From: a virus | Taxonomy: Duplodnaviria > Heunggongvirae > Uroviricota > Caudoviricetes | Virus record (IMG/VR): IMGVR_UViG_2537561830_000002 | Reading direction: 5' to 3' (one strand) | DNA length: 52,488 bases | In this document: piece by piece, positions 38,026-38,799 of the stretch | Layout: each line of letters starts with the position of its first letter | Numbering within the stretch: position 1 is the first letter of the stretch | Program-made: the position numbers and the translations under genes | Notes under the pieces: model-generated | Told to the model about the DNA's origin: nothing | Database searches by the model: none | The model's input: the letters and a program-made list of their open reading frames with translations, nothing else

Positions 38026-38799
38026 TCAAAAATTAGGTGAGTAACGGACCGGGGACATAGCTCCTTTTTTTCTTAATTCATCTGGTATTTTTTTTCCAAG
38101 ATAAAGATTTGCTATTTCAGGTGGGGCTTCTCGACCTTCAAAACCATAGCGAGAACTTTGTGTTGCCTCAAAGTCCGGATCCTCGTCCCAGTATTTCATC
38201 GTAGGGAAATTTTCACGTGTTGATTTGAGCCATTTATCAGCAATGAAAACCCCTCGAACGATCCCCCTTACAGTAGCAAGAATGACTTCTGCTTGGCTGG
38301 CGCGAGAGACATTAATGCGCCAGCTAAATCGAACCGCATCATAAAGCTCTGAATCCTTTGCACTTCTGTTAACGGAAATCATTAATGCTTTATGATGAAA
38401 TGTTATGGTTTCGGGTTGATATGTTGCTATCAACTCTTTGACATGCGCGGCGCCGAATTCATTGCTGCCAGCACCATTCATGATATTCGTTAACCCAGGG
38501 TAGGCATCAATAAGTGCTGCTTCGACTTCGTACGCCGTCTTTTCATCAGTCATTCCGTGTCGATGGATGACATGGATAACCTCAAGTCCTGCTAACCTTA
38601 TTTCTCTAATTTGCTTTAGCTTGTTGCTCAGTAACTCGTCATCATCAGTCGCTGCCACTTCACCGCGCATATGGGCAAATACGCGGTTACCTTTGCCTTT
38701 CCCTACATAGAAGGTGCTTCCGTCCCTCGGATCAATCAATCGGTATACATACCAGCCAAGGTGTTCAATTACTCCAGAAGGAAACTCAGTAATATCCAT
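38026..38799 (-). CDS. GIY-YIG nuclease-domain protein with uncharacterised C-terminal domain (257 aa)
   Basis: N-terminal [27 protein letters not shown] (GIY...YIG spacing plus Arg); AT-rich; ATG at 38797-38799 (the track ORF starts on TTG at 38850). Confidence 0.7.

Follow-up and report, generated by a model that had tools for sequence, protein, structure and literature searches.

A very probable CMoRE (PD-T4-3) defence gene carried as cargo by a thrW-integrated Escherichia coli prophage

The defence system PD-T4-3 was renamed CMoRE in a study published in January 2026 (Nat Commun 2026; PMC12923530), which states that it was first discovered in E. coli ECOR68 during the 2022 functional selection of PMC9519451; the strings 'PD-T4-3' and 'ECOR68' were not found in the main text of the latter, and the ECOR68 origin rests on PMC12923530. 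In this study I describe a gene at positions 38026-38799 of the viral DNA record IMGVR_UViG_2537561830_000002 (Caudoviricetes; 52,488 nucleotides, in their entirety called the window below), which is very likely an intact CMoRE gene, carried as cargo (a 'moron') with a defence function by an SfV/e14-like prophage at thrW. The family has already been named, biochemically characterised and crystallised, and the finding is correct but ordinary.

Much is known about the CMoRE of E. coli O157:H7 (PMC12923530). Under its native promoter the gene lowers the plating of phages T2, T4 and T6 approximately 100,000-fold, or by some five logs, and cells that carry it outlive a high multiplicity of infection, which indicates a direct defence and no abortive infection. 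The purified protein binds, in electrophoretic mobility shift assays, and degrades DNA with 5-hydroxymethylcytosine (5hmC) or glucosyl-5hmC (5ghmC), whereas DNA with unmodified cytosine or with 5-methylcytosine (5mC) is neither bound nor degraded; T4(C) escapes while T4(hmC) is still sensitive. Cleavage depends on base modification, has no strict sequence specificity, and occurs between two modified cytosines in the pattern C N11 / N9 G, leaving 3' overhangs of 2 nucleotides. According to the crystal structures, the N-terminal part is a GIY-YIG domain whose motif has the uncommon form GIYxY-YIG (Y17, Y19, Y31) and whose nearest structural relative is UvrC, and a 15-residue acidic loop between alpha2 and alpha3 covers the active site; the 4A mutant, in which four acidic residues of this loop are replaced by alanine, is toxic and cuts ordinary DNA. 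The C-terminal sensor is a 5hmC-binding domain with a new fold and without detectable homologues, and in the complex with 5hm-dCTP Y127's main-chain oxygen touches the 5-hydroxyl of 5hmC. Defence requires the tetramer and is abolished by V92S/L96S as well as by active-site mutations, and the APEC O1 gene gives only weak defence from its own promoter. The text of PMC12923530 makes no mention of prophages. A homologue with 48% identity degrades the DNA of T4 and of Mu, but not that of T4-GT7, and it is active 'at very low expression levels' with no inducer (PMC12366544). In a native clinical host, deletion of PD-T4-3 results in sensitivity to Tevenvirinae; it was one of only two systems active in that isolate, many predicted systems being inactive in their native hosts (10.1101/2024.12.20.629700).

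Two further groups of enzymes invite comparison. Like CMoRE, the type IV PvuRts1I/AbaSI family and GmrSD, which are specific for 5hmC and 5ghmC, have separate sensor and nuclease domains, but the folds of CMoRE and the PvuRts1I family differ, the former combining a GIY-YIG nuclease with a sensor that lacks detectable homologues. Enzymes of the PvuRts1I family consist of a PD-(D/E)XK-type nuclease and an SRA-like sensor, and they too cut at a set distance from a pair of modified cytosines. PvuRts1I also recognises both 5hmC and 5ghmC (discussed in PMC12923530). The second group comprises the homing endonucleases I-TevI, I-BmoI and the Seg proteins and the type II restriction enzymes Eco29kI and Hpy188I, which have in common with CMoRE the GIY-YIG core with its tyrosine, arginine, glutamate and asparagine. 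The extra tyrosine (GIYxY-YIG) and the 15-residue acidic insert set CMoRE apart from these; moreover, it is devoid of NUMOD, IENR and HTH modules, and its specificity derives from base modification and not from sequence.

Identity and domain layout of the gene

The identity of the gene follows from end-to-end matches to profiles and to crystallised proteins. The PADLOC profile PDLC04031 (PD-T4-3) is matched at E=2.4e-140 and 464 bits, with residues 1-256 of the 257-residue protein aligned to profile positions 1-255/256, and phrog_5356 is matched at E=2e-143. A search of PDB sequences returned 9U75/9U8D (E=3.7e-172) and 9U7U/9U7Z (E=1.1e-150), in each case with a gap-free alignment over the entire length. 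The protein is identical in 253 of 257 residues to chain A of 9U75, the CMoRE of E. coli O157:H7, and likewise in 253 of 257 to the Sakai (O157:H7) protein ECs_0285; length, start, domain order and functional residues all agree (9U75, 9U8D; ECs_0285). The only four differences from 9U75, all of them conservative, are T51A, E55D, Q169K and N197H (window residue first), and in two of these, E55 and N197, the window protein has the residue of a second crystallised and active enzyme, that of APEC O1 (9U7U, 9U7Z). The acidic run accordingly reads D52 D53 D54 E55 in the window, DDDD in O157:H7 and DDDE in APEC O1.

All residues to which a function has been assigned in the published enzyme are conserved in the window protein. 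The GIYxY-YIG tyrosines Y17, Y19 and Y31 are present, and so are R39 and E93, which conservation suggests to be the catalytic arginine and glutamate, residues for which the text of PMC12923530 gives no numbers. The first-pass annotation had named Y18, Y31 and R39 as the active site; the latter two stand, while the tyrosine near residue 18 is in fact a pair, Y17 and Y19. The tetramer-interface residues V92 and L96 are present and, as regards the beta1-beta2 loop, likewise counted to the interface, residues 20-30 are identical to those of 9U75. In the C-terminal part, residues 120-257 align without gaps to both 9U75 and 9U7U, with two substitutions with respect to 9U75 and with Y127 in place. 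Furthermore, Y17, Y19, Y31, R39, E93 and N105 are invariant in an alignment with phage homologues of 33-46% identity. Every feature of CMoRE membership that can be read from a sequence is present in the window protein, and by its 98% identity to the O157:H7 protein the window allele is predicted to cleave 5hmC and 5ghmC DNA selectively and to protect against T-even phages.

The layout of the gene on the minus strand is as follows.

38470..38754, minus strand: GIY-YIG nuclease domain (Pfam PF22945 at residues 28-110, PF01541 at residues 16-100); key residues invariant with respect to the phage homologues
38635..38646, minus strand: acidic autoinhibitory loop, a 'safety catch' over the active site, residues 52-55 (DDDE); function taken from the 4A mutant (PMC12923530)
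38029..38442, minus strand: C-terminal domain that senses the modification, residues ~120-257 with Y127; no Pfam match, 98% identical to the crystallised domain

The first-pass annotation had proposed an open reading frame with a GIY...YIG...R core at 38026-38799, and its coordinates proved exact. In the program-made list the frame extends over 38026-38850 on the minus strand, giving 274 amino acids if counted from a TTG; the ATG at 38799, from which the 257 amino acids beginning with MDITEF are counted, is also the start used in RefSeq (a coding sequence of 774 nucleotides), in the PADLOC and PHROG profiles, which align from residue 1, and in the crystallised protein. The motif peptide quoted earlier corresponds to residues 15-41. 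In Pfam, the protein matches PF22945 (LEM-3_GIY-YIG) at E=2.1e-14 and 54.2 bits (cut-off 27) over residues 28-110, a match which establishes membership of a domain family only and says nothing about the biological role; the generic GIY-YIG model PF01541 (residues 16-100) remains below threshold with 13.9 bits against 22.6. As had been remarked before, the C-terminal part of about 145 residues contains no recognisable motif: no Pfam family is found for residues 111-257 at E<=1, and a search of the protein against NCBIfam gave no family. In RefSeq the gene is labelled either 'LEM-3-like GIY-YIG domain-containing protein' or 'hypothetical protein'.

Its reverse orientation and AT-richness, also recorded in the first-pass annotation, are borne out, the gene lying on the strand opposite to the tail genes with a guanine plus cytosine (GC) fraction of 0.439, compared with 0.546 in the structural (capsid and tail) module. 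It appears to work as a single component, with neither a methyltransferase nor any co-oriented partner adjacent, and with both neighbours, pinE and a regulator of the AraC family, on the other strand.

The prophage, its cargo slot and other loci

The gene resides in a prophage of ~39.5 kb that is integrated at thrW, between a Pin-type invertase and attR. The features relevant to this position are listed here.

1369-1444, plus strand: thrW tRNA-Thr(CGT) (ARAGORN)
1399-1448, plus strand: attL core, the last 50 nucleotides of thrW and flank, repeated at 40857-40906
1459-2622, minus strand: tyrosine integrase gene after thrW (Phage_integrase, Pfam)
35883..37349: invertible tail-fibre segment of ~1.4 kb, the invertase substrate, between 26-nucleotide inverted repeats (35883-35908 and 37324-37349, arms 96% complementary)
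37375..37965 (RefSeq start at 37411), plus strand: Pin-type serine invertase pinE (Resolvase and HTH_7); its stop codon is the left edge of the variable slot
38800..38975, minus strand: putative 5' untranslated stretch and promoter of the CMoRE gene, no consensus sigma-70 site; the homologous O157:H7 native promoter gave ~5-log defence
38976..39041, plus strand: 3' fragment of a tRNA-Ser, 66 nucleotides from the anticodon stem to CCA with one mismatch in the T-arm, ~176 nucleotides upstream of the CMoRE start
39615..40367, plus strand: AraC-family regulator, the second cargo gene, GC 0.35 (HTH_AraC/HTH_18; phrog_1450)
40409..40636, minus strand: IS3-family transposase fragment, an integrase core remnant (rve_3; partial ISEc48 in the Sakai annotation)
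40857..40906, plus strand: attR, a repeat of the thrW 3' end; 50-nucleotide direct repeat, 98% identical to 1399-1448

The earlier placement of the gene in a cargo zone between invertase and attR thus holds, with pinE at 37375-37965 and attR at 40857-40906. On the invertible segment, alternative tail-fibre C-termini and assembly genes lie on opposite strands, and the expressed tail-fibre gene (35599-36582) contains a glycine-rich domain. A sigma-70-like promoter match (10/12) is found at 39561-39590, directly upstream of the AraC regulator. A nearly identical prophage is present in strain ECE228 (99.8% over 37300-39700), where ymfR, ymfQ, stfP and pinE are annotated, with a Mu-type baseplate and contractile tail, and with paoABCD on the right. 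With its thrW site, Mu-type baseplate and ymfQ/ymfR/pinE genes, the backbone of the prophage is SfV/e14-like and not Sf6-like. The analogy with the serotype-conversion cargo of SfV/Sf6-type phages, drawn in the first-pass annotation, is reasonable, since in LD91-1 a related prophage carries the CMoRE gene beside one for an acyltransferase.

The comparison with the cryptic prophage e14 of K-12 delimits the slot. Blocks of 92-99% identity connect e14 with the window, the last of which stops exactly at the pinE stop codon (37966), and beyond pinE, where no DNA similarity between the two is left, e14 has mcrA (region 5686-7413 of locus L002) followed by attR. McrA (EcoKMcrA) therefore occupies the same slot, directly after the pinE stop and before attR, and like CMoRE it is a single-gene, modification-dependent type IV enzyme without a methyltransferase partner. 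The two proteins are unrelated, however, and mcrA lies on the strand of pinE, whereas the CMoRE gene lies on the opposite one. McrA is an HNH nuclease and not a GIY-YIG enzyme, which targets 5mC and 5hmC in a sequence context, and e14 integrates at icd instead of thrW. One slot of a homologous backbone hence hosts two unrelated type IV restriction genes, mcrA and CMoRE.

In O157:H7 Sakai, prophage Sp1, also at thrW, shows the same slot and a gene order identical to that of the window: pinE, the CMoRE gene ECs_0285 on the opposite strand, the AraC regulator (ECs_0287), a partial IS3 and the prophage end with attR. The two loci differ in that Sp1 is a remnant of 10.6 kb while the window prophage is full-length (39.5 kb), and in that the 180 nucleotides proximal to the promoter have diverged by ~9%. 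This divergence is not evenly spread; it amounts to ~9% to the left of the tRNA-Ser fragment, but only ~0.6% to the right. The fragment itself matches chromosomal genes annotated as tRNA-Ser, in almost every E. coli genome, at 98.7% identity over 75 nucleotides (BLAST), by which its identity was settled, since a search against Rfam gave only sub-threshold matches to class-II tRNAs. The step in divergence at 38976-39041 points to a recombination boundary of the CMoRE module, and the tRNA-Ser fragment looks like an att scar that bounds this module, at the junction of two cargo modules with different histories.

I counted occurrences among 5426 complete E. coli genomes, at a query coverage of at least 80%. 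The CMoRE gene with its 176-nucleotide upstream region is present in 822 of these, the pin-CMoRE-AraC region (37300-39700) in 373, and the e14 junction of pinE, mcrA and attR in 329. The allele class of the window (at least 99% DNA identity) comprises 213 records without any sign of decay. Elsewhere the gene, again at the tail-fibre/att end of prophages, has other neighbours. In JS316 (locus L007, 4001-7857) these are a DNA cytosine methyltransferase and a restriction endonuclease of type II; in IrN the gene comes after pinE at thrW, but the genes downstream are others; and in LD91-1 (locus L009, 2384-5618) it lies by a gene of the acyltransferase family and a DinI-like pseudogene, in a prophage beside tRNA-Pro. 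As the neighbours vary between loci, CMoRE is a mobile cargo cassette of a single gene. The AraC regulator was considered as a partner of CMoRE and rejected, as it is absent beside CMoRE in the three other loci (JS316, IrN and LD91-1) and one gene suffices for the system to work.

Full-length homologues with 33-46% identity, including the C-terminal sensor, also occur in jumbo phages, namely Serratia phage Moabite (locus L004, 2501-3265), Pseudomonas phage OBP (locus L005, 2492-3253), 2050HW and N1M2, as well as in the ~108-kb Escherichia phage PhiR41_1 (locus L006, 2456-3223), which carries parA. They retain Y17, Y19, Y31, R39, E93 and N105, lack the four-residue acidic autoinhibitory loop, and bear no annotation beyond 'endonuclease' or 'putative homing nuclease'. 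These phage-encoded proteins may serve in competition between phages.

Several other parts of the window attracted attention. Within the prophage, a block of low GC (~0.40) at 13060-15260 on the minus strand holds three genes of 211, 142 and 379 amino acids, which match PHROGs 9664, 11490 and 12777 (all of unknown function) and, weakly, the PADLOC candidate PDC-S54 (E=6.9e-6), with no Pfam matches; possibly the block is a second locus of cargo or defence genes. A low-GC open reading frame of 176 amino acids at 30006-30536 (plus strand), between the tape-measure and the DNA-circularisation/baseplate genes, matches phrog_5485 (unknown function) and has no Pfam match, and looks like a moron within the tail module. 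PADLOC, Pfam and PHROG scans of low-GC open reading frames other than the CMoRE gene yielded no named function. Five to six tandem iteron-like repeats of 15 nucleotides (TCAAAATCTGAC-type) at 8359-8481, inside the open reading frame 8071-9012, are probably the replication origin of the prophage within an O-like initiator gene. Directly after attR follows a second element of lower GC (40907-51500; 0.40, locally 0.35), which encodes a serine recombinase (42237-42794, minus strand) as well as an HTH protein (44726-45352) and includes a perfect tandem duplication of 22 nucleotides (43297-43340) and two large open reading frames matched by PHROGs only, the one weakly major-head-like, the other 'tape measure' phrog_16051 (E=3.6e-72). 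From 51508 onward it is succeeded by an insertion sequence with a DDE transposase. The equivalent place in Sakai is taken by the P4-like element Sp2.

Alternative readings of the gene

The first-pass annotation had left the choice between a single-gene defence nuclease and a homing endonuclease, and the published experiments on PD-T4-3/CMoRE decide for the former. A GIY-YIG homing endonuclease, I-TevI-like or free-standing, would spread by cutting an allele that lacks the gene, and both a marginal match (E=0.0021) to phrog_314 'homing endonuclease' and the label 'putative homing nuclease' on the homologues of the jumbo phages OBP and N1M2 could be read in this way, even though such phage labels are based on the domain only. 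The C-terminal domain, for which a homing-endonuclease DNA-binding module had been named as the finding that would speak against defence, matches no NUMOD, IENR1, HTH or zinc-finger module (Pfam, residues 111-257, E<=1), and in the crystal structure of the 98%-identical protein it is a 5hmC-binding new fold, a sensor of modified cytosine. Cutting depends on base modification without strict sequence specificity. Nor does the gene reside in an intron, intein or conserved target gene; it occupies a cargo slot between the pinE stop and the tRNA-Ser scar, and in other prophages its neighbours are unrelated. On the grounds of the sensor domain, the modification-dependent cutting and the genomic position I reject homing as very improbable. 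Still less credible is a housekeeping nuclease of the prophage for repair or replication, structure-specific like UvrC or LEM-3/ANKLE1. The top Pfam domain (LEM-3_GIY-YIG), the RefSeq name 'LEM-3-like GIY-YIG domain-containing protein', and UvrC as the nuclease domain's nearest relative in structure (PMC12923530) all hint at it, but only the catalytic domain shows this likeness. The gene is not part of the replication module; it belongs to the variable cargo zone, where it has the opposite orientation and a lower GC; e14 has a different gene at the same place, other prophages carry CMoRE by unrelated neighbours, and the experiments show modification-dependent restriction and not repair (PMC12366544, PMC12923530).

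Alternatively, the gene may be intact but silent or ineffective in its source strain, through the diverged promoter or through T51 and Q169, and thus be cargo without current defence. Nothing in the sequence contradicts the assignment as CMoRE, but several observations call for caution. A promoter and terminator consensus scan of 37900-39700 found none on the strand of the gene, and fewer sites than in shuffled sequence, and no obvious Shine-Dalgarno sequence or clear ribosome-binding site precedes the gene; because of this result the promoter can be deduced only from the published native-promoter constructs. The upstream region of 176 (~180) nucleotides differs from the tested Sakai/O157:H7 promoter at about 14-16 positions, or ~9%, and the weak defence by the APEC O1 allele under its native promoter (PMC12923530) makes the expression level in the source strain uncertain. 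T51 and Q169 distinguish the window allele from the assayed O157:H7 enzyme, its own activity being a prediction from sequence, and the catalytic numbering of R39 and E93 is drawn from conservation. That many predicted defence systems are inactive in their native hosts (10.1101/2024.12.20.629700) fits this picture. However, the open reading frame is full length with all published functional residues kept, the allele class persists in the 213 records without decay, PD-T4-3 belongs to the only two systems active in the native clinical isolate (10.1101/2024.12.20.629700), and the homologue is effective at very low, uninduced expression (PMC12366544). I consider a silent gene unlikely, with more to be said for it than for homing or repair, and expression is the only realistic reservation about the assignment of the gene as a CMoRE defence gene.

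Proposed action and meaning of the cargo

The mode of action of CMoRE proposed here is that of the experiments on the O157:H7 protein, carried over to the 98%-identical window protein by near-identity. The protein would assemble as a tetramer, a dimer of dimers, of which the C-terminal domains would bind DNA containing 5-hydroxymethylcytosine or its glucosylated form while ignoring ordinary cytosine and 5mC. The N-terminal GIY-YIG domain would then cleave both strands in the interval between two modified cytosines, at the fixed spacing C N11 / N9 G, so that 3' overhangs of 2 nucleotides result, and the acidic loop 52-55 over the active site would spare the unmodified DNA of host and prophage. 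Incoming DNA of T-even-type phages would be degraded directly, without killing of the cell and without need of a methyltransferase partner. A lysogen would in this manner be shielded from Tevenvirinae, to the gain of the host and the resident prophage alike.

It is tempting to go one step further, if only tentatively. In e14/SfV-like prophages, the stretch from the tail-fibre/Pin invertase module to attR might be a dedicated exchange site, a type IV slot that repeatedly gains modification-dependent nucleases, perhaps swapped at att-like tRNA scars such as the tRNA-Ser fragment at 38976-39041. McrA is found there in e14, CMoRE in the window and in Sp1 of O157, and in prophages of other types CMoRE neighbours a restriction-modification pair of type II or a gene for an acyltransferase. 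As a separate and equally speculative idea, the loop-less homologues of the jumbo phages could be weapons against co-infecting phages with hydroxymethylcytosine (hmC). PMC12923530 puts forward neither of the two.

In practice, a lysogen with this prophage is predicted to be resistant to T-even-type phages (Tevenvirinae), which is relevant to host-range prediction in phage therapy, and the RefSeq annotation of the gene could be upgraded to CMoRE/PD-T4-3. The additions made by this analysis, the slot in common with mcrA, the module boundary at the tRNA-Ser scar and the homologues in jumbo phages, are minor and incremental, and they bear on how prophages shuffle their defence cargo.

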